Shown: in pieces, positions 45,297 through 60,431 of the stretch
Layout: the number at the start of each line of letters is the position of its first letter
Position numbering within the stretch: the first letter of the stretch is position 1
Origin: an uncultured Candidatus Saccharibacteria bacterium
GTDB taxonomy: Bacteria > Patescibacteriota > Saccharimonadia > Saccharimonadales > Saccharimonadaceae
Assembly (NCBI GenBank): GCA_938046735.1
Contig: CALIXF010000003.1
Location: forward strand, 16,463 to 80,462
Length of the DNA stretch: 64,000 nucleotides
Direction: 5' to 3'
The notes under the pieces: model-generated
Seen by the model: the letters and a program-made list of their open reading frames with translations, nothing else
Database searches by the model: none
Told to the model about the DNA's origin: nothing
Translations under genes and position numbers: made by a program

Positions 45297-47561
45297 ATGA
45301 AAAATATGAATAGTCTTGGGGGCGGAAATAACAATACTGAAAGTGTTGTCGATAATGATGAAAATAAAAATATCGAAAAAAACAGCGAGCAGGAGAAGAA
45401 ATCGTTAGAATTTTCGAAAGAGGATATTAATAACGGTAAAAAACGCCAGGCAATTGTAAATTTCTTGAATGGTGAGCTAGCTGCACAGATGAAGCAGGAA
45501 GTTGGCCTTGGATTTGCGGATGAGCAGTGGGCAAAAAAGCAGATTTTTTCTGTACAGGATCGTTTAAAGAATGCAAGTAATAATTATAATGCTGATCATA
45601 ATGATGATGCATTCTTGTATGTCGTAAATGACATTATGGACAAAATCAATCAGGGAGCTGAGGTGGTTGATGGTGATGAAACTAAGACTAAGAAACTCGA
45701 AAATACTGCAAAAATTAAGGAATCGATTATATCGAGAAATAAAAAAGGTGAAATTAGCGATTCGCTAATGAACCATAAATTGAATTCGCTTGAGAAAGTG
45801 AATGAGAATATTAATAAAGATTTTGATTTACGTCGATATGGCTTTTTGGCGGAAAAGCAGATAAAGGAAGAAAACGAGAAATATGCTGAGACCGTCAAGA
45901 GTTTTGATCAAAAAGATGAAGAGTTTCGTAAAAAGCGTAGTGAATATGAAGCCATGAATGGTGGTAAGTTGACGAGCGAACAAAGAGAAGAGTTGAAAAA
46001 ATTACGTGGTGAAGCTGATTCGTTATGGGATGAAAGATCAAAACTCGAAGAAGTGATAGGTGAATCAGATGAGACTAGGAAAGCGAAGTTAGCTAGTGAA
46101 ATTGCACAGCAAGAGAAACAAAAGGCCGAAGAACGCAAGAAACAGCTAGAAACTGTACTTGGATTGAATAAAAAAGAATCGGAAACTGTGGGGGATAATG
46201 AGAAAAATGAGGTTCGTGAAGCTGGAGATGATGAGAACAGGGAAGGTGTGACTGCATTTCAAATGAGACAGTTTATGAGAACCGGAGTTGCTGGTCATCA
46301 CAATCTGCCAAAAAATAGTGTTGAAAAAAATGAAAAAGAAAAAGACCCAGAAGAACAAAAGCGTGAGGAATTGAAGAAGTATTATGAATCGTTAGTGCCA
46401 AAACCTGACAGTGTTGAAGCTGCAAGCTTCGGCAACGGTGAGTATATTTGTGAAGCTATACTTGATACTGACGCTAGTAAGCAAAGAAGTGTTGAGAAAG
46501 TAATTGAAAAAAGAGAAGAATACTTGAGCCAAGTTGATAAGAACGAGATCTCAGCTGACAAGTTTAACTTCCTGAGGGGGTCTAATTTGGGTGCAAATCT
46601 TCTATTGAATTACTGCAAGATCGATAATGGTTTGATGTATGCGGCAGAGATGGGTAATGAAAAAGTACTTTACACAAAGATGTTCAATAATCTCTTTGGC
46701 GCAAAGAATAAGCTGCTTTCTTTATATGATCCAATGGCCGCTGAAGAAAAATTATGTAAAGCAACTGGAAAACCATTTGACTCGGATAAATTTAAGGATG
46801 CTAAGGGTGAAATCTCTAAAGAGCAATATGAGATAGCATTAAATGTTTTGAATGGTTTCCAAGTTAATATCGTGAACAAGGCAGGAAAAGAGATCGGCTC
46901 AAATGACCCTAACGATGTAATTGAGATGTTTAATAATGAGCGAAAATCTGATGCATATAAGGAGTTTGAGGAGAGGATCCGAATGAACGACTTTAACAGG
47001 AGTGAAATGGGGAGAGTCTATAATGAAAAGAGGGCTGTTGCTGATGATTTTGTGAAAAGTTTCTTTGATAAAGAGGCAGATAAAAAAGTGAAGGCATACA
47101 TGAATGGTGCAAACCCTTATCAAAAGGAGTCCGGGAGTGGTTTGTCGACAGAAATGAAGGAGACACAAGCAGAAAATAGTGCAGAAATTGCAAAAGATTT
47201 ACGAGAACTAAATCTTGAAGGAATGTTTAAGCGTTTTAGCAAGGATATGGCCGGAGATGATGAAAACAAATTGTTTGGTGCTTCATACTTATATAGAGAG
47301 CTTAACAGCGAATTTATGAAACTAAAGAAGAAAATTGAAGATAGTAGTTTTAGAAAATTGCCAGCAGAAGAACAACGTGAAGCTGAAACAAAACGGGATT
47401 TACTGTATAATATTTCGGATAGTCTAAATGATTTTTGTAGCGAAGCATTTCAGAAACAGAAGTATAATATTAGGCAGTCTTTACTAAATTATGCGAAAAG
47501 TACTAAGAAGAATATAATAAGAACTCTTGTGCGTAATTTAAGTTTTATGCGTAAACGCTAA
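45297..47561 (+). CDS. hypothetical large K/E-rich protein (754 aa) with predicted coiled-coil segments, no TM or signal peptide
   Basis: Long uninterrupted ORF with a GGAGAG Shine-Dalgarno sequence; very high charge; no catalytic motifs. Confidence 0.55.
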   Translation: MKNMNSLGGGNNNTESVVDNDENKNIEKNSEQEKKSLEFSKEDINNGKKRQAIVNFLNGELAAQMKQEVGLGFADEQWAKKQIFSVQDRLKNASNNYNADHNDDAFLYVVNDIMDKINQGAEVVDGDETKTKKLENTAKIKESIISRNKKGEISDSLMNHKLNSLEKVNENINKDFDLRRYGFLAEKQIKEENEKYAETVKSFDQKDEEFRKKRSEYEAMNGGKLTSEQREELKKLRGEADSLWDERSKLEEVIGESDETRKAKLASEIAQQEKQKAEERKKQLETVLGLNKKESETVGDNEKNEVREAGDDENREGVTAFQMRQFMRTGVAGHHNLPKNSVEKNEKEKDPEEQKREELKKYYESLVPKPDSVEAASFGNGEYICEAILDTDASKQRSVEKVIEKREEYLSQVDKNEISADKFNFLRGSNLGANLLLNYCKIDNGLMYAAEMGNEKVLYTKMFNNLFGAKNKLLSLYDPMAAEEKLCKATGKPFDSDKFKDAKGEISKEQYEIALNVLNGFQVNIVNKAGKEIGSNDPNDVIEMFNNERKSDAYKEFEERIRMNDFNRSEMGRVYNEKRAVADDFVKSFFDKEADKKVKAYMNGANPYQKESGSGLSTEMKETQAENSAEIAKDLRELNLEGMFKRFSKDMAGDDENKLFGASYLYRELNSEFMKLKKKIEDSSFRKLPAEEQREAETKRDLLYNISDSLNDFCSEAFQKQKYNIRQSLLNYAKSTKKNIIRTLVRNLSFMRKR

Positions 47562-48714: not shown

Positions 48715-49098
48715 ATGAAAATATTAAACAAAATATTTCGAGGGATGGCAACCTTTATTTTAAGTTTGAGTTTTATTTATGCTCTAGGGGCTTTTTCGCA
48801 ACCAGTTTTTGCGGATTGTGGTGGTGTAAAAACTTCGATTATTAATTGTAGCGAGACTGATCCTAAGTCAGGAATTTTTGCAGTACTTGGTATGGTATTA
48901 AATATCTTGACAGTTGGCGTTGGAATTGCAGCGACGGCAGGCCTTATCTTTTGTGGTTATCAATATATGACTTCTAAGAATGAGCCAGCAGTAATAGCAA
49001 AAATTAAAATGCGTATACTAAATATTGTAATTGGGTTAGTTATTTATGCGATGTTTTGGGGTGTGATTGCACTACTACTTCCGGGTGGTATTAATTAA
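48715..49098 (+). CDS. VirB2/TrbC-like pilin-family small membrane protein (paralog of 1532-1924)
   Basis: 127 aa; signal-like N-terminus, two TM helices separated by a short loop. Confidence 0.5.
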   Translation: MKILNKIFRGMATFILSLSFIYALGAFSQPVFADCGGVKTSIINCSETDPKSGIFAVLGMVLNILTVGVGIAATAGLIFCGYQYMTSKNEPAVIAKIKMRILNIVIGLVIYAMFWGVIALLLPGGIN

Positions 49099-50125: not shown

Positions 50126-50149
50126 TGCTTGTGTTATAATTACGTTAAT

Positions 50150-51196
50150 ATGAGTCTATTGCATGGAGTGGGCGATTTCTTCGCATTGGATATTGGGACA
50201 AATTCGATCAGAATGATCCAGCTTTCTGGTAATGTGGAAAAGGGCTGGGTGCTTGAAAAATTTGCGTATGTACCAATTGATTCTAAGTTAACTCAAGATG
50301 ATTCGGAAACCGGAAGAAGGAGGTTAGGGGAAATTATTTTGGGTGCTAGGCAACAGGCAGGGATTAGGACAAAAAATATTGCGGTCGGTATGCCAGCAAG
50401 AAAAACATATACGGCTATTATTGAGGTGCCTAATGCCCCTAAGCGAGAAATTGTGAATACAGTTAAATATGAGGCTGATCAATATGTGCCAATGTCGGTA
50501 GATGATGCAAAAGTAGATTTTGCGGTGCTTGGAATTAGCCCAAATGACGCAAAGAAAGCTGAAATTTTGCTTTCATCAGTCGATAATGCTTATGCAGAGT
50601 CGCTACTTGAGAGAATTGAAGCTTTAGGTTTGAACGTAATCGCACAAGAACCTGAGCCAATATCTATGGTAAGGGCGTTGGCGCCAGTGGGTGTTCAGGA
50701 CGCAAGAATGATTATCGATCTTGGTGAGACCTCAACTGATCTAGTGGTGATGTATCAAGATTCACCACGCTTGGTACGTTCGATTCCTGGAGGGCTTGCG
50801 AGCTTTGTGAAAGTGGTGGAAAGTTCCTTAAAGGTACGTGAAGATCAAGCAAGGCAATTTATTTTAAAATTTGGTTTGGCTCAAGATAAACTGGAAGGAA
50901 AGGTTTATAATGCTTTAAGTTCTACTCTGGAAAATTTTGCACTAGAATTGACAAAATCAGTAAGATTCTTTCAGAATCGTTACACTGGAGCGCAGGTGGG
51001 CGGAATTGTACTATCTGGTTTTTCTGGTATTATTCCGTTTATTGCGGAATATATTGAAATGAAGACTGGAGTTGCAACAATTCAGGGTAATCCTTGGCAA
51101 TATGTAAAAGTGACACCTCAACAACAACAGCTACTTTTGCCAGTAGCATCAGAATTCGCGGTAGCGATTGGGCTCGCTGAGAGGAGTAATGACTAA
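50150..51196 (+). CDS. pilM: type IV pilus assembly protein PilM (actin-like ATPase fold)
   Basis: FALDIGTNSIRMIQL N-terminal actin-fold motif; ATG at 50150 preferred over TTG at 50129. Confidence 0.8.
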   Translation: MSLLHGVGDFFALDIGTNSIRMIQLSGNVEKGWVLEKFAYVPIDSKLTQDDSETGRRRLGEIILGARQQAGIRTKNIAVGMPARKTYTAIIEVPNAPKREIVNTVKYEADQYVPMSVDDAKVDFAVLGISPNDAKKAEILLSSVDNAYAESLLERIEALGLNVIAQEPEPISMVRALAPVGVQDARMIIDLGETSTDLVVMYQDSPRLVRSIPGGLASFVKVVESSLKVREDQARQFILKFGLAQDKLEGKVYNALSSTLENFALELTKSVRFFQNRYTGAQVGGIVLSGFSGIIPFIAEYIEMKTGVATIQGNPWQYVKVTPQQQQLLLPVASEFAVAIGLAERSND

Positions 51197-52701
51197 TGAA
51201 GAAATATACTTTTAAGAATATGACTTTTTCAGATATCCCTAAATTCTTTAAGGATTTAGTTGCTGGGAAAAAGGATGATTCGGCCATGATGACTGGTCAG
51301 ACTGGCAAATACGAAGTGAATTTGGTGCCAGATGTAAAACTGGAGATGATTCGTTTGCAAAAAATTCGTAATCTTGTATTTTTTGTTTGTATTGTGGTTT
51401 CGATTGTTTCGGTTTCAACATTGGTGGTGTTGGGTGGAATTAAGGGAACACAAGACCTTCTAATTTCAGGTCAAGAAAGTCATATAAAGAATCTGAGTGA
51501 TAAAATTACAAATTATAAAGAGCTGCCAGATTTTTTGACAATTCAAGATCAATTGAAGAAATTGTCGGAAATTAATAAGAACCGTCCAGTATTGTCGCGG
51601 GTATTTCCAATTTTGAAAAATTTGTTCCCGACTGGTGCAGATACTATAACTATGTCGGAACTAAATGTAAATCTTGAGACGGCAACTTTAAACTTTGATG
51701 CTCAGGCAAACGCAGGTGAGGAACCGAAAATTGATTATCGCGTGCTGGAATCATTTAAGAAATCAGTCAATATGATGAAATACGATTTTGGGCGTTTCGT
51801 GACGGCGAGTGGCGATCAAATTCCGACTAGATGCATTCAAGAGACGGATGACAAGGGAAACTTATTGTCTGAAAACGGTAATGTGTATGTAATTTGGAAA
51901 AGAGGTAAGGTTGACTGTGATCCTGGACGTAATGATCATGTCAATAAAACGGAAGAAAATAATACAATAGGTAACAAAAGGACTGATTCCTCAATTGATA
52001 ACACTAACTTAAATAATGGAAGTCTTGGTCAAGTAAATGATCAAGAGAAGAAGGAAGAGAAAAAAACAGTTACAAAGATTGAGACAATTATTCCCGATGA
52101 GAAAATTTGGCGTACACCACAGTTTGACACTTGGAGTAAAGGAACGGAAGTAAAGACTTCTGAGGATGGAGTGGCAGATGATTTAGCTTCAAGTCGCGAA
52201 AGTAATACACAGACTGAAAATGGCACAGAAATTGAGACTGTGACGATTAAAAATGTGAAAAACTCGATTTATAAGCCAGTAATGGATCTAAAGGGGAAGG
52301 TTACAGGGGTGCCACATTTTGAGAGTGAATGCATTAAATATTCTGGTACTAAGGTAAATGAAAATAATGCAGAAACGATAAAATGGAGTGCAGAAAATAG
52401 CTGTAAGATGGTGCCTGAGGGAATTCAGATTACTGATTCATCAAATGGTCGTGATGCAAATAATAATTTAGTCTTAAGATTTTCGGCAGCGTTATCGATT
52501 GATCCTGTGATCTTTGCTTATAATAACAAACATATTATGACGATTGGTCCAACAGGCCAGAATGTAACGGACTCATATCAGCAAATTAAGGGAATGTTTG
52601 CAGCGCCGGCTAATGATTGTAAGGCTGACGATGCAGAATGTAGTACGCAAAATACAAAGCAAGCGGATAGTAAAAATAGCGGAAGTGAGAACAAAAAATG
52701 A
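51196..52701 (+). CDS. PilN-like type IV pilus assembly protein with a roughly 300-aa Cys-containing C-terminal extension
   Basis: N-terminal cytoplasmic segment plus single TM (LVFFVCIVVSIVSVSTLVVLGG) plus periplasmic coiled-coil region, as in PilN; operon position after pilM. Confidence 0.55.
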   Translation: MKKYTFKNMTFSDIPKFFKDLVAGKKDDSAMMTGQTGKYEVNLVPDVKLEMIRLQKIRNLVFFVCIVVSIVSVSTLVVLGGIKGTQDLLISGQESHIKNLSDKITNYKELPDFLTIQDQLKKLSEINKNRPVLSRVFPILKNLFPTGADTITMSELNVNLETATLNFDAQANAGEEPKIDYRVLESFKKSVNMMKYDFGRFVTASGDQIPTRCIQETDDKGNLLSENGNVYVIWKRGKVDCDPGRNDHVNKTEENNTIGNKRTDSSIDNTNLNNGSLGQVNDQEKKEEKKTVTKIETIIPDEKIWRTPQFDTWSKGTEVKTSEDGVADDLASSRESNTQTENGTEIETVTIKNVKNSIYKPVMDLKGKVTGVPHFESECIKYSGTKVNENNAETIKWSAENSCKMVPEGIQITDSSNGRDANNNLVLRFSAALSIDPVIFAYNNKHIMTIGPTGQNVTDSYQQIKGMFAAPANDCKADDAECSTQNTKQADSKNSGSENKK

Positions 52702-53591
52702 CAGAAAAAAGTTTTGGAAAACGATTTCGGATGAATAAGCTACAACAGCAGATGATGATGGCTGCACTGGGGGCTTCGTTGCTTTTGGGTGTGAGTGTTG
52801 TGGTATCAATTTACCTCATTAAATATATGAATTTTAATGCAAAGGTGATTAAGAGACGTGATGTGGCAATTGCGAATTATGATCTTGCAATTAAAAATGT
52901 TGGTATTTGTAAAGATAGTGATGGGGATGGTAAATTTTCGGAAAAGGAACTAAAAAGTTGTAATCCGCAGGCGATTGATGTTTCAAGTATACCGGGTACT
53001 TTGCGTTATAACGTAATGGTGGGAATGGCTGCAAATACCAATTTGGAATCGGTGGCAAGAACTAGCCAGAAAAAATGCTACGATGAAAATGGGAAGCGAA
53101 TTAATTTTACAACTGCTTACTCAAAGGCAACTAGTGATGATGAGAGATCATATGATCTTAAAATGATGAAAATGTGTTCAGCGTTACGTGTGGTGCCAGA
53201 TGCGTTGCCGGCTCAGAAAAACGATGAGGCATTGTTGGGTTCTTTGAACCAGATTTTCTTATTGTCTGGTTTTGAGCCTGAACAACTTTCACCGGGAACT
53301 AATTATAGACAGAGCCGTGTGTCTGGTGTATCGACGATTCCAGTGTCTTTGACGGTAAAAAGAAGTGAAGCTGAGACGATGTCAATTATTTCAAATATTG
53401 AGAAGTCGATACGCGCTTTCAGTATATCTTCCGCCCAGATTAAATGGGGTAGTAATTTAGGAAATGGTAATACAAAACTAGAGTTATTAGCACAGGGTGC
53501 AGCGTTTTACAGTGCGGAGACAACGGTACAAGAAAAAACTGAGATAGTAAAAGCTAAGGAAGATAAAACTAAAGATAAGAGACAAAAATAG
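52698..53591 (+). CDS. PilO-like type IV pilus assembly protein
   Basis: 297 aa; single N-terminal TM; operon position; contains a Cys-bracketed EF-hand-like loop. Confidence 0.45.
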   Translation: MTEKSFGKRFRMNKLQQQMMMAALGASLLLGVSVVVSIYLIKYMNFNAKVIKRRDVAIANYDLAIKNVGICKDSDGDGKFSEKELKSCNPQAIDVSSIPGTLRYNVMVGMAANTNLESVARTSQKKCYDENGKRINFTTAYSKATSDDERSYDLKMMKMCSALRVVPDALPAQKNDEALLGSLNQIFLLSGFEPEQLSPGTNYRQSRVSGVSTIPVSLTVKRSEAETMSIISNIEKSIRAFSISSAQIKWGSNLGNGNTKLELLAQGAAFYSAETTVQEKTEIVKAKEDKTKDKRQK

Positions 53592-53603
53592 GAAGAAAGT
53601 AAT

Positions 53604-54077
53604 ATGAAGCAATCAGATATTTTCACAATAATTATTATCGCCTCGATCGGGATGGTGGGTGCTTTCTTTGCTTCAAATGCTATTTTGGGAAATCCAGACG
53701 AATTAACGATGAAACATAAAAATATTTCACCGATTTCAACCGAAGTGGTAGAACCAGATCCTGAAACGTTTAACCGGGATGCAATTAATCCGACGGTCGA
53801 GGTTTATGTTGGTCAATGTGAGGATGTGGACCAGAATGGTATCTTGGATCGTGCTGAGTTGGTAGCTTGCGGTAAGGCAAGTCCAGAAGAGTCAAAAGAG
53901 GAACAAAAGACAGAAGATAAACAGAAGAAGGACGAAGGGCAGACGGGGGGGCAAACTAATAATAATTCAAATAGTACAGGTGGACCGGCAACCGAAAATC
54001 AAAATAGTAACACAGGTAACTCGAATAATGCAAGTAGCTCATCAAGCAGTCAAAATAGAGCAGGTTCAACTGAATAG
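53604..54077 (+). CDS. small membrane-anchored pilus-cluster protein with an EF-hand-like loop and an N/S/Q-rich tail (PilP-like by position)
   Basis: 157 aa; one TM; DVDQNGILDRAE loop between two cysteines. Confidence 0.4.
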   Translation: MKQSDIFTIIIIASIGMVGAFFASNAILGNPDELTMKHKNISPISTEVVEPDPETFNRDAINPTVEVYVGQCEDVDQNGILDRAELVACGKASPEESKEEQKTEDKQKKDEGQTGGQTNNNSNSTGGPATENQNSNTGNSNNASSSSSSQNRAGSTE

Positions 54078-54079
54078 TT

Positions 54080-55840
54080 ATGACATTACTGACGCAGGAA
54101 GCACAAGAAAAAGTAGTATCCCTTTTAATCTCAGAGGGGTTGGTTTCTAGTGAAAAAGTTCAGGAAGTAGTTGAGGAAATAAAAAAGACAAAACAGCCAC
54201 TTCTTGCGACTTTAATTGCGAGAAGAGTGACAGATGCGGAGACCGTAACGCATGCAACGGCGGTGATAATTAATGTGCCGTATGTAAGCTTAAGAAATGT
54301 GATGTTTGATCCGGAAATTTTATCACTCTTGCCGTATGACGTGGTTTCAAGGTCAATGGTAGTACCGCTCGGGGAAAAGAATGGACAATTGTATGTGGCG
54401 ATGCTTGATGTGTCAAACGTACAACAGACGGATTATTTGTCACAGTTAACGCAGAAACCAATAAGAATTATGATGGCTTCTGAAAAAGGTCTAAAAGCCG
54501 CAATCTCGCAATATAGAGGAGACTTCACGGCAGTAGAAAAGGCGGTGAAGACTTCAGAGGCAGATGAAGCTTCACATGGGGCAAATGTGAAGATTATTAC
54601 GCAAGATTCGCCAATCTCAAAAGCATTATCAACGATTTTGACTTTTGCGACAAAATCAAAAGCTTCGGATATTCATATTGAGCCATTAGAAAAAACTTTG
54701 ATTGTGAGATGCCGAATTGATGGCGTACTTCGTAAGGTAATGGAGTTGCCTAAAACGATTGAGCCAGCCCTAGTATCTCGTGTGAAAATTTTATCAAACC
54801 TAAAGATTGACGAACATCGTATACCACAGGATGGACAATTTACGGTACTTGTGGATGGAAAAGAAGTAGATTTGCGTATTGCTATTTCGCCGGTAATTTG
54901 GGGGGAACAGGTAGTGATTCGTATCTTGGATAAAAGTGGAACAACGCTTGATATTGAACAAATGGGAATGACTGGTCATGCGTTGAGGATGGTGGAGCGA
55001 GGAATTGCAAAGCCAAATGGTATGATTTTAACTTCAGGTCCAACTGGTTCTGGAAAATCGACAACGTTGTACGCTCTGATTCGTAGGATTAGGACAGACG
55101 GTATTAATATCGTGACGCTGGAAGATCCGGTGGAGTATAAGATGGATGGAGTGAATCAGATTCAGGTGAATGTGGATGCTGGTTTGACTTTTGCAACTGG
55201 TTTACGTAGTATTTTGCGTCAAGATCCGGATGTGGTGATGGTAGGAGAAATTCGTGATGCGGAAACGGCAAATTTAGCAGTTCAGGCTGCACTGACTGGG
55301 CATTTGGTGTTTTCGACATTACATACTAACTCGGCGGCAGGTATTTTGCCAAGGCTTCTTGATATGGGAATTGAACCATTTTTATTAGCCTCAACACTAA
55401 ATACGGTTATTGGACAGAGATTAGTAAGACGAGTGGCGCCAAAGAGAGAGGCTGTTCATTCAAATGAAATGGAAACGAAGCAAATTAATGATTTGGTGGG
55501 AAACATTCTACCACAAAATCAACAGCAAGTTGCAATCGTATCAGACGACTTAGGTTATACGGGTTTGCCAGTGGTGAATCCAAATGGCTACACTCTAGTT
55601 AGGGGAATTGATGAGCGAGAAACGCCTGGAGGGTATAAGGGGAGGGCAGGTCTTTATGAAACTATTGAAGTGGATGACGATATACAAAAAATGATTATTT
55701 CACACGCAACATCAAGCGAAATTATGAAGTTAGCTAAGTCGAAGGGGACATTGACGATGCGGCAGGACGGGATGATGAAAGCTTTAACAGGTATAACAAC
55801 GGTGAGTGAAGTGAATCGTGTGGCGTCGGATTTAGCTTAA
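54080..55840 (+). CDS. pilB: type IV pilus assembly ATPase PilB (GspE family)
   Basis: 586 aa; N-terminal T2SSE_N domain, Walker A LTSGPTGSGKSTTLYAL, Asp box, His box. Confidence 0.9.
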   Translation: MTLLTQEAQEKVVSLLISEGLVSSEKVQEVVEEIKKTKQPLLATLIARRVTDAETVTHATAVIINVPYVSLRNVMFDPEILSLLPYDVVSRSMVVPLGEKNGQLYVAMLDVSNVQQTDYLSQLTQKPIRIMMASEKGLKAAISQYRGDFTAVEKAVKTSEADEASHGANVKIITQDSPISKALSTILTFATKSKASDIHIEPLEKTLIVRCRIDGVLRKVMELPKTIEPALVSRVKILSNLKIDEHRIPQDGQFTVLVDGKEVDLRIAISPVIWGEQVVIRILDKSGTTLDIEQMGMTGHALRMVERGIAKPNGMILTSGPTGSGKSTTLYALIRRIRTDGINIVTLEDPVEYKMDGVNQIQVNVDAGLTFATGLRSILRQDPDVVMVGEIRDAETANLAVQAALTGHLVFSTLHTNSAAGILPRLLDMGIEPFLLASTLNTVIGQRLVRRVAPKREAVHSNEMETKQINDLVGNILPQNQQQVAIVSDDLGYTGLPVVNPNGYTLVRGIDERETPGGYKGRAGLYETIEVDDDIQKMIISHATSSEIMKLAKSKGTLTMRQDGMMKALTGITTVSEVNRVASDLA

Positions 55841-55913: not shown

Positions 55914-57155
55914 ATGCAGGGAAATACACAGCCACAAACAAATATGACAGCTATGCCGACTTCAACAGCGGGAGTGGCTCCACAGGTGAATCTGGCAAAT
56001 GTGACAGCTTCACCACAGCCTGTGGCGACAGCGGTTAAGACAACAGCAGCTAGTCAAGCAGCGGCAGCTTCGACTCCGACTAGCTTGCCAACCTCAATTA
56101 AGATTGAAACACTGCTTGAAGAGTGTATTAAACGTAGTGCATCCGATTTGCATATTCAGGTTGGATTGCCGCCAATTTTACGCATTGACGGATCTTTAGC
56201 TCCTATCCCAAATACACCAGCATTAACGAGCGAAATGGTGGATAAGCTGATTTTTTCAACTTTGGACTCAATGCAACGTGAAGTTTTGTCAAAAGACAAA
56301 GAGTTTGATTATTCATTTTCTTTTGGTGAGATTGCACGTTTTCGTGTAAATGCATTTAATGAAAAAGGTAATTTGGCTGCAGCATTTCGTCTAATTCCCA
56401 CAAAGATGCCAACAATTGAAGAGTTGGGAATGCCACAAATTATTTCTTCATTTGCAGATTATCCACGTGGATTGGTTCTAGTAACTGGTCCAACTGGATC
56501 AGGTAAATCAACAACTTTAGCGGCAATTATTAATAAGATTAATTCTGAAAAGGCGATGCATATTTTAACGATTGAGGACCCAATCGAATTTACGCATAAA
56601 TCAATTCGTTCAGTGGTGGCACAGCGAGAAGTGCATTATGATACGTACTCTTTTTCGAGGGCGTTAAAGTCGGCTCTCCGTGAAGATCCGGATGTGGTGT
56701 TGCTCGGTGAAATGCGTGATCTTGAGACGATTTCATCGGCAATTACGATTGCGGAGACTGGACATTTGGTTTTTGCGACGCTTCATACTAATTCAGCAGC
56801 TCAGTCAATTGATCGTATGATTGATGTTTTTCCAGCAGAACAACAACCACAGATTCGTTCGCAGTTAGCTGGAATTTTAATGGCGGTTTGTTCGCAGAGA
56901 CTTGTGCCTGCAATTGGAGGAGGGCGCGTTGTGGCAGCGGAGATTATGATTGCTAATTCGGCGGTGCGTTCAATTATTCGTGAGGGAAAAACACATCAAC
57001 TGGATAATACTATCCAAACTGGTGCAAATGAGGGGATGCAGACAATGGACCGAACTTTGGCAAAACTTGTACAGCAGGGAACAGTGACTTATGATAGCGC
57101 TAGAGATTATGCAGTAGATACGCGTGAATTTGATAGATTAGTGAAGGGGATCTAA
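55914..57155 (+). CDS. pilT: type IV pilus retraction ATPase PilT with a roughly 60-aa disordered N-terminal extension
   Basis: Walker A VLVTGPTGSGKSTTLAAII; AIRNLIRE-like motif (AVRSIIREGK). Confidence 0.85.
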   Translation: MQGNTQPQTNMTAMPTSTAGVAPQVNLANVTASPQPVATAVKTTAASQAAAASTPTSLPTSIKIETLLEECIKRSASDLHIQVGLPPILRIDGSLAPIPNTPALTSEMVDKLIFSTLDSMQREVLSKDKEFDYSFSFGEIARFRVNAFNEKGNLAAAFRLIPTKMPTIEELGMPQIISSFADYPRGLVLVTGPTGSGKSTTLAAIINKINSEKAMHILTIEDPIEFTHKSIRSVVAQREVHYDTYSFSRALKSALREDPDVVLLGEMRDLETISSAITIAETGHLVFATLHTNSAAQSIDRMIDVFPAEQQPQIRSQLAGILMAVCSQRLVPAIGGGRVVAAEIMIANSAVRSIIREGKTHQLDNTIQTGANEGMQTMDRTLAKLVQQGTVTYDSARDYAVDTREFDRLVKGI

Positions 57156-58372
57156 TGAAACGTTTTATATACAAGGCAAGAGATAGCAAGACTGGAGAGA
57201 TTATGAAGGGGGTGATCCAGGCGGAAAACGAGAGAACGGCGGGAAAACTTTTGATTGAGCAGGGGATGACACCAGACCGAATTGATGAAGATATGTCTGG
57301 GGTCGGGCTATTTCAACGTTTTCGAAATAAAGTTACAATGAAAGATAAGATTGTCTTTACAAGACAGTTTGCGACTTTAATCGGTGCAGGTTTGCCGTTA
57401 TCTAATTCACTAAGAACGGTGATTGAACAGACGGAAAGTAAGCCAATGCAGAAAGTGGTTGAATCGATCTTGGTAGATGTTGAGGCTGGTAAAACTTTAA
57501 CACAGGCTTGTGAAAAATATCCTGATGTATTCAATAAAGTTTATATCGCCTTACTTAGGGCGGGCGAAGCTTCAGGTAGTTTGGATGTGTCACTTAAACG
57601 ATTAGCTGAACAGCAGGAAAAAGATCATGCGATGATCTCTAGAATTCGTGGAGCGTTGATTTATCCAGCAATTATTTTAATGGTAATTATTGCGGTTTTA
57701 GTATTTATGGTATTAATGATTGTGCCACAAGTACAGTCTTTATATAAGGATATAGGTAAAGATTTACCTTGGGCGACGATGGTTTTGGTGTCGTTCGCGA
57801 ATTTTCTAGTAGCATTTTGGTGGCTAGTGACAATTTTACTTGGTATAGCCATCTATTTCCTTTTGCAATTCAGGAAGACGACGACGGGTATTGAGTGGTC
57901 GGCGATGATAAAGCTGAATGTGCCAATATTTAAAACGATGTTTTGGCGATTATATAATGCGCGATTTGCAAGAACGGCGTCAAATTTAATGTCGGCTGGC
58001 GTGTCAATTCAGGATACCTTACAGATTTCGGCTGAAGCGATGAATAATGTTGTGCTTGAGAAGGAAATTAAAGATGTTTCTGAAAAAGTAAAACAGGGTA
58101 AGACTTTGTCGTCGTCTTTGAAGAATTTATCGTATATTTTACCATTAGTACCGCAGATGGCTTCGATTGGTGAGGAATCTGGTAAAATAGATGAGATGTT
58201 GGCGAAGGCTGCACAGGTGTACGAGGATGAGTTGGAAGAGCAGATTCGTACGATTTCAACGATGATTGAACCAGTTCTAATGGTGGTCATGGCAATAATG
58301 GTTGGTTTTATTATCGTAGCAGTACTATTCCCAATATATTCAATCGTAAATGATGTACAAGGTAATATATAG
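57155..58372 (+). CDS. pilC: type IV pilus platform protein PilC (GspF family)
   Basis: 405 aa; two GspF repeats with 3 TM helices. Confidence 0.85.
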   Translation: MKRFIYKARDSKTGEIMKGVIQAENERTAGKLLIEQGMTPDRIDEDMSGVGLFQRFRNKVTMKDKIVFTRQFATLIGAGLPLSNSLRTVIEQTESKPMQKVVESILVDVEAGKTLTQACEKYPDVFNKVYIALLRAGEASGSLDVSLKRLAEQQEKDHAMISRIRGALIYPAIILMVIIAVLVFMVLMIVPQVQSLYKDIGKDLPWATMVLVSFANFLVAFWWLVTILLGIAIYFLLQFRKTTTGIEWSAMIKLNVPIFKTMFWRLYNARFARTASNLMSAGVSIQDTLQISAEAMNNVVLEKEIKDVSEKVKQGKTLSSSLKNLSYILPLVPQMASIGEESGKIDEMLAKAAQVYEDELEEQIRTISTMIEPVLMVVMAIMVGFIIVAVLFPIYSIVNDVQGNI

Positions 58373-59411: not shown

Positions 59412-60431
59412 ATGGAGTCGGAAGATAGACCAGTATTTACAAATTCTGAGATTAAAAAAATTAATGATTTTGATGTATTTTTGTGGGCAAATGAAATTGA
59501 TGAAGTAAAGAATAATGTTTCTTGTGAACTTTTTTTATTCAATAAAAACTATACTCCATTTAAGATTCGCTATTCAGAGAAGTTAACTAATTCGGTAAAA
59601 CAAATGTTTATGGGTGAAGCTGTGGCATTTGTGATTAAGGAGGCGGATAAAGGACTGGAATGTCGCGAGTATGAAAAATCAGATGGAGAAAACAAAGTAA
59701 TTTATCGTACAGATTTAGATAAAGTAATACGGGCGGAAAGCTTGATCAGATTAGTCGAAAAAGAATATAAAGATATTGATTACTTTACGGATAACGAGCA
59801 TCAATTTAAGAAAGTAAAAGGTATTTTAGCGCGATTTACTTATCCTGGCGGTGAGGGGATGAAGACGTTTTATGTTGCAAAAGCAATTTCAGCTGCTTCG
59901 GCTCTAAATGCAAAATCGTCTTGGGAATTGAATGGTGAGAGCTTTGAGCCGTTTAGTGCGGAAGTGGCTTTGAAAATGCCTGATGACAATCAAGTGGCGA
60001 TTATTGATGAAAATGTGATAATTTTTAACCAAAGTAAATTTGAAAATCTTTTCCAATATGATTTTAAGGCACAGATGCTAGCGGAAGCAAAGGCGAAAGA
60101 AATTGAGGAGAAATATCAGTTATCTTTTGCGGAGGGATTAACTTTAAATGCTTTGCTTCAAGATAAAAAACCGTTGGTGAAAAAATTGCAAGACATGGAT
60201 ATTCAAGAACAGATGTCACAGGAACAGCTAGTTGATTACTCAGATGAGATGAAATTGGATCTAATGACCGATGATGACGGTAAAATTATTATTATGGACG
60301 ACAAAGATTTGACGATGTTTGTCAATTTATTGAACGAGGATTATTATGTATCTCCAGTGAATGGTAAACGATATGAAATTAAGTCTAAGAAATTACTAAA
60401 TGAACCGGAAGGTGAACCACCAAGAGGTTAG
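59412..60431 (+). CDS. hypothetical cytoplasmic protein (339 aa) with an acidic C-terminal region
   Basis: Long ORF with a GAGAGGAAG Shine-Dalgarno sequence; no recognisable catalytic motif. Confidence 0.5.
   Translation: MESEDRPVFTNSEIKKINDFDVFLWANEIDEVKNNVSCELFLFNKNYTPFKIRYSEKLTNSVKQMFMGEAVAFVIKEADKGLECREYEKSDGENKVIYRTDLDKVIRAESLIRLVEKEYKDIDYFTDNEHQFKKVKGILARFTYPGGEGMKTFYVAKAISAASALNAKSSWELNGESFEPFSAEVALKMPDDNQVAIIDENVIIFNQSKFENLFQYDFKAQMLAEAKAKEIEEKYQLSFAEGLTLNALLQDKKPLVKKLQDMDIQEQMSQEQLVDYSDEMKLDLMTDDDGKIIIMDDKDLTMFVNLLNEDYYVSPVNGKRYEIKSKKLLNEPEGEPPRG

Follow-up and report, generated by a model that had tools for sequence, protein, structure and literature searches.

Two cysteine-bracketed EF-type loops in adjacent pilus-operon proteins

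The 64,000-nucleotide (nt) window analysed here, the whole stretch of contig CALIXF010000003.1 presented above, carries a type IV pilus operon of an oral Saccharibacterium (TM7) in which two neighbouring genes attract attention. The PilO-like protein and the small bitopic membrane protein encoded after it each contain a 12-residue loop of EF-hand type enclosed by two cysteines. A preliminary description had reported such loops at 52908-52961 and 53817-53870; both are present there, and no other EF-pattern site occurs in the six frames. The features concerned are the following.

52698..53591, + strand: PilO-like protein, 297 amino acids (aa) (Pfam PilO E=0.012, AF2 model, Foldseek, PDB sequence match)
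52908..52961, + strand: PilO-like module C71-KDSDGDGKFSEKELKS-C88, putative disulfide C71-C88 (sequence, homologue conservation)
52914..52949, + strand: 12-residue EF-type loop of the PilO-like protein, D73-E84 = DSDGDGKFSEKE (D1, D3, D5, G6, F8, S9, E12)
53604..54077, + strand: small bitopic protein, 157 aa, lacking family annotation (conserved between pilO and pilB)
53817..53870, + strand: small-protein module C72-EDVDQNGILDRAELVA-C89, putative disulfide (sequence, homologue conservation)
53823..53858, + strand: 12-residue EF-type loop of the small protein, D74-E85 = DVDQNGILDRAE (PROSITE PS00018 match)

In both proteins the bracketing cysteines occupy loop positions -2 and +16. Both loops display the canonical EF-hand features, comprising 12 residues, oxygen ligands at positions 1, 3, 5, 9 and 12, a glycine at position 6 and a hydrophobic residue at position 8, and the column statistics of their homologues agree. 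Scanning the whole window in six frames with the pattern D-x-[DNS]-x-[DNS]-G-x-[hydrophobic]-x3-[ED] returned two sites, one per protein. Residue shuffles of the 64 open reading frames (ORFs) of at least 100 aa yielded 0.099 EF-pattern loops and 0.0005 Cys-bracketed loops per shuffle, with two or more Cys-bracketed loops in 0/2000 shuffles.

Homologue statistics refer to each protein's 120 best homologues, with identities of 44-47% or more. The PROSITE pattern PS00018 has the small-protein loop as its sole match in the window and also matches 118/120 small-protein homologues. The PilO loop of the window departs from it at position 8 only (F, not LIVMC); 13/120 PilO homologues match strictly and 85/120 once F or Y is permitted there. 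The Dx[DN]xDG class motif fits the PilO loop (DSDGDG...E84), and the small-protein loop is a variant, DVDQNG, whose N at position 5 is permitted in EF-hands but not in the strict motif.

Other calcium-loop families were considered and rejected. Excalibur domains bear the signature DxDxDGxxCE, and dockerins consist of duplicated F-hand repeats; for Excalibur (PF05901) and dockerin, the loop fragments gave no Pfam match to E 10, the Cys spacing differs and each protein has one loop. Thrombospondin type 3 repeats and PilY1-type calcium blades gave no hidden Markov model match, with spacing or host fold differing.

Conservation and selection on the loops

Both cysteines are present in all homologues covering the site, so the flanking pairs pointed out earlier are indeed co-conserved, and D1, D/N5, G6 and E12 are nearly invariant in both proteins. 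In the small protein, whose search returned 883 homologues, D1, D3, N5, G6, L8, D9 and E12 are essentially invariant, and the form CEDVD[QR]NGILDRAELVAC occurs in 111/120. In PilO, conservation is strong at D5, G6, K7, F/Y8, S/T9 and E/D12. Among GTDB species representatives, the small-protein loop is found in 79/80 and the canonical PilO loop in about 65/80.

At the invariant ligand, glycine and cysteine positions every synonymous codon form is used, and positions 2, 4, 7, 10 and 11 vary freely. The synonymous saturation indicates purifying selection rather than recent common ancestry, and the conservation of the loops in homologues rules out chance. As read from the alignment columns, the constraint at both loops follows the classical EF-hand pattern. 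Positions 1 and 12 are also coupled: among 164 unique PilO loops, those with D1 have E12 in 100/102, and those lacking D1 have 29 E, 29 D and 4 other residues at position 12 (Fisher p=3e-15, not phylogeny-corrected).

These data bear directly on the possibility that neither loop binds calcium, both being disulfide-closed surface loops that resemble an EF-hand through their acidic composition and are conserved for packing or protein contact. Relatives do carry non-EF disulfide loops at the same sites, E12 and a Y/F-[ST]-x-x-E-L segment are kept where the Asp ligands are absent, and Pfam EF-hand scores fall below threshold. Such an explanation nevertheless fits poorly with conservation exactly at the EF ligand positions 1, 3, 5, 6, 8, 9 and 12, with the freely varying positions between them and the saturated synonymous sites. 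The coupling of D1 with E12 likewise counts against it, as does the occurrence of the same pattern in two independent proteins, very unlikely by chance, and absence of calcium binding is accordingly regarded as improbable.

Cysteine pairs

Cysteine co-occurrence was assessed in 114 full-length PilO proteins, each representing a cluster at 50% identity. Both C71 and C88 occur in 29/114 and neither in 85/114, with a single one in none. The PilO-like protein has a further pair.

53076..53177, + strand: second PilO-like Cys pair C127/C160, putative second disulfide (invariant in the PilO homologue alignment)

Both members of this pair occur in 77/114 representatives and one alone in 1/114. The number of extracytoplasmic cysteines is even throughout, being six in the PilN-like protein, four in the PilO-like protein and two in the small protein. 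The joint presence or absence of the cysteines, together with these even counts, supports disulfides C71-C88 and C72-C89, which are proposed because the cysteines are conserved as pairs. That two cysteines can clamp a calcium-loaded EF loop without steric conflict is indicated by EF-hand 2 of SPARC, considered below.

Identity, fold and topology

The PilO-like protein matches Pfam PilO (PF04350) with 16.1 bits (E=0.012), below the gathering score of 22 bits, and three of its homologues carry a precomputed PF04350 match. Its AlphaFold2 (AF2) model, with a mean predicted local distance difference test (pLDDT) score of 64 and about 80 over residues 30-100, consists of a transmembrane (TM)-plus-stalk helix at 14-68, a loop at 69-81, a short helix at 82-87 and an alpha/beta core. 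The TM segment, at about aa 18-46 by hydropathy, lies inside the long helix that extends to aa 68. The best Foldseek PDB matches of the model are Pseudomonas aeruginosa PilO 2rjz (E=7e-6), Myxococcus xanthus PilO 3jc8_O and the PilO-like Amuc_1100, and M. xanthus PilO is the only PDB sequence match of the protein. An N-terminal TM helix, a helical stalk, an alpha/beta core and a gene position after pilM and pilN are all found, and the original naming of this protein as PilO-like is borne out by fold and context, with the Pfam match contributing weakly.

The second protein had been presented as a pilus-assembly protein; it is not a known one, but an unannotated small bitopic protein encoded between pilO and pilB, with no Pfam or NCBIfam family. 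Outside the loop its parts are as follows.

53610..53690, + strand: N-terminal TM or signal-anchor helix, aa 3-29 (hydropathy; AF2 helix 4-27)
53754..53813, + strand: family signature PDPETFNRDAINPTVEVYVG, aa 51-70, pattern PDPETFNxDAINPTVEVYVG (invariant alignment columns; kept in non-EF relatives)
53886..54074, + strand: variable low-complexity acidic/polar tail, aa 95-157 (unconserved; AF2 pLDDT below 50)

Hydropathy assigns one N-terminal TM helix to each of the two proteins, placing both loops outside the membrane, and for PilO the known topology of the family leads to the same placement. A cytoplasmic or membrane-embedded loop, or a motif lost from orthologues, would have spoken against the preliminary description; the loops are extracytoplasmic, and motif and cysteines are kept. 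Its term 'periplasmic' is less apt. The loops do lie C-terminal to the single TM helix and on the extracytoplasmic side, but the pilus operon contains no secretin or PilP gene, and Saccharibacteria are generally held to have no outer membrane, which makes 'extracytoplasmic' the better term.

Profile-to-profile alignment of the two families (hhalign) aligns only a 24-residue module (E=4e-4, probability 34%), and BLASTP of the PilO-like protein against the small protein gives no match. The small protein as a truncated PilO paralogue was rejected on these grounds, and a common origin of the module in the two proteins is possible from the alignment.

Operon context and host

Pfam matches and gene order within the window give the operon as pilM-pilN-pilO-small-pilB-pilT-pilC. 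The remaining genes are listed below; the small-protein ORF begins 12 nt 3' of the pilO-like ORF, in the same reading frame.

50129..51196, + strand: PilM, cytoplasmic actin-like alignment protein, the first gene of the operon (Pfam PilM_2 E=1.9e-34)
51196..52701, + strand: PilN-like bitopic protein, 501 aa (between pilM and pilO; INLLP-like N-terminal motif)
54080..55840, + strand: PilB assembly ATPase (Pfam T2SSE 4.9e-121 + MshEN)
55914..57155, + strand: PilT-type retraction ATPase (Pfam T2SSE 4.1e-51, short form)
57155..58372, + strand: PilC platform protein (Pfam T2SSF 2.9e-63)

Homologues carry the name Candidatus Saccharibacteria, and the nearest genomes are Candidatus Nanosyncoccus nanoralicus, TM7 group G3, HMT-351, at 88-89% identity. 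The gene set, retraction ATPase included, agrees with that of the 'T4P-1' type of locus in strain TM7x, for which PilM1/N1/O1 are named (PMC11623550), and the window holds the operon of a T4P-1-type type IV pilus from a Nanosyncoccus-like Saccharibacterium. The TM7x pilus paper mentions neither the small protein nor calcium or EF-hands in PilM1/N1/O1. Saccharibacteria need type IV pili for twitching, host binding and episymbiotic growth (PMC11623550).

The protein at the PilN position gives no Pfam match. It has the N-terminal segment 'YEVNLVPD' and a single TM helix at aa 54-85, and much of it lies outside the cytoplasm; we infer its PilN identity from gene order and the INLLP-like motif. It is unusually large at 501 aa, and its six extracytoplasmic cysteines are spaced like three local pairs (213/241, 379/403, 475/482).

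Several neighbouring ORFs were also recorded. Between a sigma-70 gene and the pilus operon, a 127-aa ORF at 48715-49098 has near-threshold Pfam matches to T4SS_pilin (25.0 vs 26.6 bits) and to TrbC/VirB2 pilin, and looks like a conjugative-type pilin beside a type IV pilus operon. A 754-aa ORF at 45297-47561, upstream of the gene for the sigma factor, gave no Pfam match at E<=0.01. Beyond the RNase H and CYTH-domain genes that lie downstream of the pilus operon, a 339-aa ORF at 59412-60431 contains a KwaB-like domain (Kiwa anti-phage defence, E=6e-10).

Evolution of the loops and loci

An exhaustive PilO profile search returned 538 relatives, falling into four classes: those with an EF-type loop, those with a Cys loop lacking the Asp ligands, those with the C127/C160 pair only, and Cys-free forms. 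Loops of the second class sit at the same place and typically read C-x-x-P-K-G-x-x-Y-[ST]-x-x-E-L-x-x-C-x-P, and in the third class the insertion of about 18 residues that forms the loop is missing. In the PKG-type loops (loci L081-L142), Pro-Lys-Gly replaces positions 3-6 and Glu12 is invariant; speculatively, the lysine side chain could substitute for the calcium ion through a salt bridge to E12.

The downstream small ORF is found in 146/158 related loci, and loci with a loop-less PilO have it as well. A PKG-type PilO used as query gave 80 metagenomic loci, most of them PKG-type, and the small protein persists beside such PilO proteins with ...ALNPTVEVYVG.C and a short 8-residue Cys loop, e.g. 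CDEYNEYGEC. Loop-less PilO relatives are encoded in pilM-pilN-pilO-small-pilB loci without pilT, where the Cys loop of the small protein is 12 residues long and contains W-D, e.g. CRSGYTWDEDLNSC. Across the family, the signature F-N-x3-[IL]-N-P-T-V-E-V-Y-V-G-x-C is followed by a Cys loop with 8, 12 or 16 residues separating the two cysteines. In loop-less loci L161-L163 a YchF-like GTPase gene precedes pilM, and these loci resemble the retraction-less T4P-2 of TM7x; the EF or Cys loop of PilO may be specific to the T4P-1 paralogue. Compared across these classes, each of the two loops is a lineage-specific version of a more ancient disulfide-closed loop that occupied the same site.

The loop states of the two proteins were counted jointly in 133 unique loci.

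PilO EF / small EF: 55 loci
PilO non-EF / small EF: 18 loci
PilO non-EF / small non-EF: 60 loci
PilO EF / small non-EF: 0 loci

An EF-type PilO is found only where the small protein is EF-type. On a tree built by the unweighted pair group method with arithmetic mean from PilO identity distances with the loop masked, parsimony gives about 10 changes for the PilO EF state and about 2 for the small-protein EF state, the counts being approximate. Even some of the closest relatives, at 77-82% identity, have a degenerate PilO loop, e.g. CKPSSKDGRFSDKDLEKC, with the adjoining small-protein loop unchanged. By this comparison the small-protein EF site is stable and the PilO EF site labile. Covariation between the two loops yielded clade-level patterns only. 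A typical Saccharibacteria pilO-small pair with both EF loops also appears on a 3.6-kb contig (locus L072, CAZNGJ010000155.1) labelled as an 'uncultured Bacteroides sp.' metagenome-assembled genome; the contig is probably mis-binned.

EF-hands normally fold as pairs, and the two loops had earlier been described as paired, which could hold only across the two proteins and not within either, each having one loop. A partner in trans would satisfy this need: the PilO and small-protein loops would dock through a short beta-bridge at position 8, with Ca2+ driving or stabilising the hetero-association. The gene order is suggestive, pilO and the small gene being adjacent in nearly all related loci, and the modules are equally far from the N-terminus (C71, C72), are the sole region aligning profile-to-profile between the families, and belong in one case to a protein that does not fold alone in AF2. 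The nested 55/18/60/0 distribution, moreover, has an asymmetry resembling EF pairs with one degenerate site. Phylogeny alone can explain that nesting, however; loop-loop covariation beyond clade effects is not clear, and self-pairing of a PilO homodimer is equally possible. Such a trans pair is considered unlikely, though not negligible. The same low expectation attaches to its extension to an inter-subunit EF-hand switch, by which host-associated Saccharibacteria would assemble the alignment complex under the control of extracellular Ca2+ and whose PilO half could decay freely into a pseudo-site.

A further candidate role, the one raised in the preliminary description, is that of a regulatory calcium sensor, in which external Ca2+ would alter loop occupancy and so switch pilus extension, retraction or assembly, as with PilY1. 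The near-invariance of the small-protein loop (111/120) is stronger than a generic stabilising site needs, and the complex that contains the loops connects the motor side in the cytoplasm (PilM) with the cell exterior. Canonical EF loops typically bind Ca2+ at micromolar concentrations and would saturate at the millimolar concentrations found extracellularly, so loops of usual affinity are expected to be saturated here. Close relatives with an intact operon have also repeatedly lost the PilO ligands, related lineages carry non-binding loops, and no experimental link was found in the literature searched. PilY1 provides a precedent for Ca2+ control of type IV pili (PMC3123361). A sensor is rated doubtful, slightly below the trans pair.

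Proposed role and points that weigh against it

The explanation favoured here is that both loops are structural, disulfide-locked Ca2+ staples in the extracytoplasmic stalk of the alignment complex, to which a probability of roughly 0.55 is assigned. From the ligand pattern we infer Ca2+ binding by both loops, and a structural rather than a regulatory role is suggested. Both sites would have started out as loops closed by a disulfide, in the extracytoplasmic part of the alignment-complex stalk, and in the Nanosyncoccus-like, animal-associated clade both would have become Ca2+-binding loops of EF type. Each loop would be locked by its disulfide and would coordinate one Ca2+ with the side chains of positions 1, 3, 5, 9 and 12, the backbone of position 7 adding a further ligand. 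The resulting structural staple would rigidify the membrane-proximal stalk of the PilN/PilO/small-protein alignment complex and, with saliva and rumen fluid being calcium-rich, its sites would mostly be filled. That PilO has lost its ligands repeatedly while the operon persists argues for an optional structural role; this and the expected saturation at millimolar external Ca2+ speak against an essential regulatory switch. The PilO ligand flips and the non-binding sister loops would fit an optional structural Ca2+ site better than such a switch.

A number of observations weigh against the staple. EF-hand_1 and EF-hand_6 are the sole Pfam families to appear for the loop fragments, but both stay below threshold; for EF-hand_1 (PF00036) the PilO fragment scores 13.6 bits and the small-protein fragment 12.2 against a gathering score of 25.4, over model positions 10-25 only, and the full-length PilO-like and small proteins give no Pfam EF-hand match. 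F or Y at position 8 of the PilO loop is unusual for canonical EF-hands, and with a single EF-pattern site in each protein there is no EF-hand pair within one chain. The AF2 model of PilO shows a helix-loop-helix at the EF loop, but that of the small protein alone does not, being unstructured past the TM helix (pLDDT 50), so that a helix-loop-helix is unsupported there. The conservation of E12 in PKG-type PilO loops, where the Asp ligands are absent, means that calcium does not account for all of the conservation, and a more specific role, possibly in regulation or interaction, would likewise be compatible with the near-invariance of the small-protein loop. The loop correlations and parsimony counts, finally, are not corrected with a species tree.

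Comparison with known systems

The closest structural parallel to a calcium staple of this kind is EF-hand 2 of SPARC/BM-40 (osteonectin), where an extracellular 12-residue EF loop lies within a Cys-Cys disulfide, ETC-DLDNDKYIALDE-WAG-C. In the sequence, verified in PDB 1sra, the C-terminal cysteine stands at +16 exactly as in the PilO-like and small proteins, whereas the N-terminal cysteine is at -1 in SPARC and at -2 in both pilus proteins. The disulfide stabilises SPARC EF-hand II (PMC9531499). SPARC differs in being a eukaryotic matrix protein whose loop belongs to an intramolecular EF-hand pair of a globular domain, whereas a lone loop in a bacterial bitopic membrane protein is seen here. 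Neither protein has a SPARC or EC-domain Pfam match, and the likeness is limited to the Cys-loop-Cys motif.

Dx[DN]xDG loops share with the present ones the linear motif, the downstream acidic ligand and insertion as a loop in an unrelated host fold, with homologues with and without the motif coexisting. Loops of this class arise repeatedly and convergently, homologues often differ in having the motif, and high extracellular Ca2+ is suggested to ease the fixation of newly evolved motifs (Rigden et al. 2011, PMC3123361). The birth and loss of the EF state in PilO and the small protein fits this view of convergent Dx[DN]xDG loops. PilO and the small type IV pilus protein lie outside the structural contexts listed for the class, however, and the class has no disulfide bracket.

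In PilY1 of P. aeruginosa, calcium binding governs pilus biogenesis and twitching (PMC3123361). Like the present proteins, PilY1 belongs to the type IV pilus system, lies outside the cytoplasm and has a Dx[DN]xDG loop resembling an EF-hand, but it is a pilus-associated beta-propeller adhesin with a 'calcium blade' lacking cysteines, whereas the loops described here belong to inner-membrane alignment-complex proteins. PilO itself (P. aeruginosa 2rjz/5uvr, M. xanthus 3jc8 chain O, Akkermansia Amuc_1100) has the same architecture, fold and operon position, and the distant PilO-like relatives from the profile search lack the Cys-bracketed insertion of about 18 residues.

In type IV filaments, the C-terminal loop is stabilised either by a disulfide (type IV pilins) or by Ca2+ (major pseudopilins of the type II secretion system, T2SS), the two acting as interchangeable staples. 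These are filament subunits with one stabiliser or the other, whereas the alignment proteins here would combine both in one loop. The literature searched contained no report of a Cys-bracketed EF loop in PilO and, PilY1 apart, no paper linking EF-hands to PilO or PilN, and the Saccharibacteria pilus papers do not mention EF-hand loops in PilO or the small protein. What is new, as judged from sequence, is a known motif in a new structural context, single-handed and putatively disulfide-stapled, in PilO and an unannotated partner.

Significance

Current views of type IV pili are not overturned by these findings. The pilus machinery of Saccharibacteria has so far been annotated by distant homology only, and a conserved, unannotated fourth membrane component between pilO and pilB is now recognised. 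In the oral and gut Nanosyncoccus-like clade, both this small component and PilO have a calcium-type, putatively disulfide-locked loop. The relatives provide an evolutionary ladder, whose rungs in PilO are the absence of a loop, a disulfide loop and an EF loop, and in the small protein Cys loops of 8, 12 and 16 residues at the same site. If calcium binding is true, the family would offer a natural case study of the birth and loss of Dx[DN]xDG sites, and these episymbionts would need extracellular Ca2+ and oxidative folding to assemble their pili, both of which can be manipulated in co-culture.

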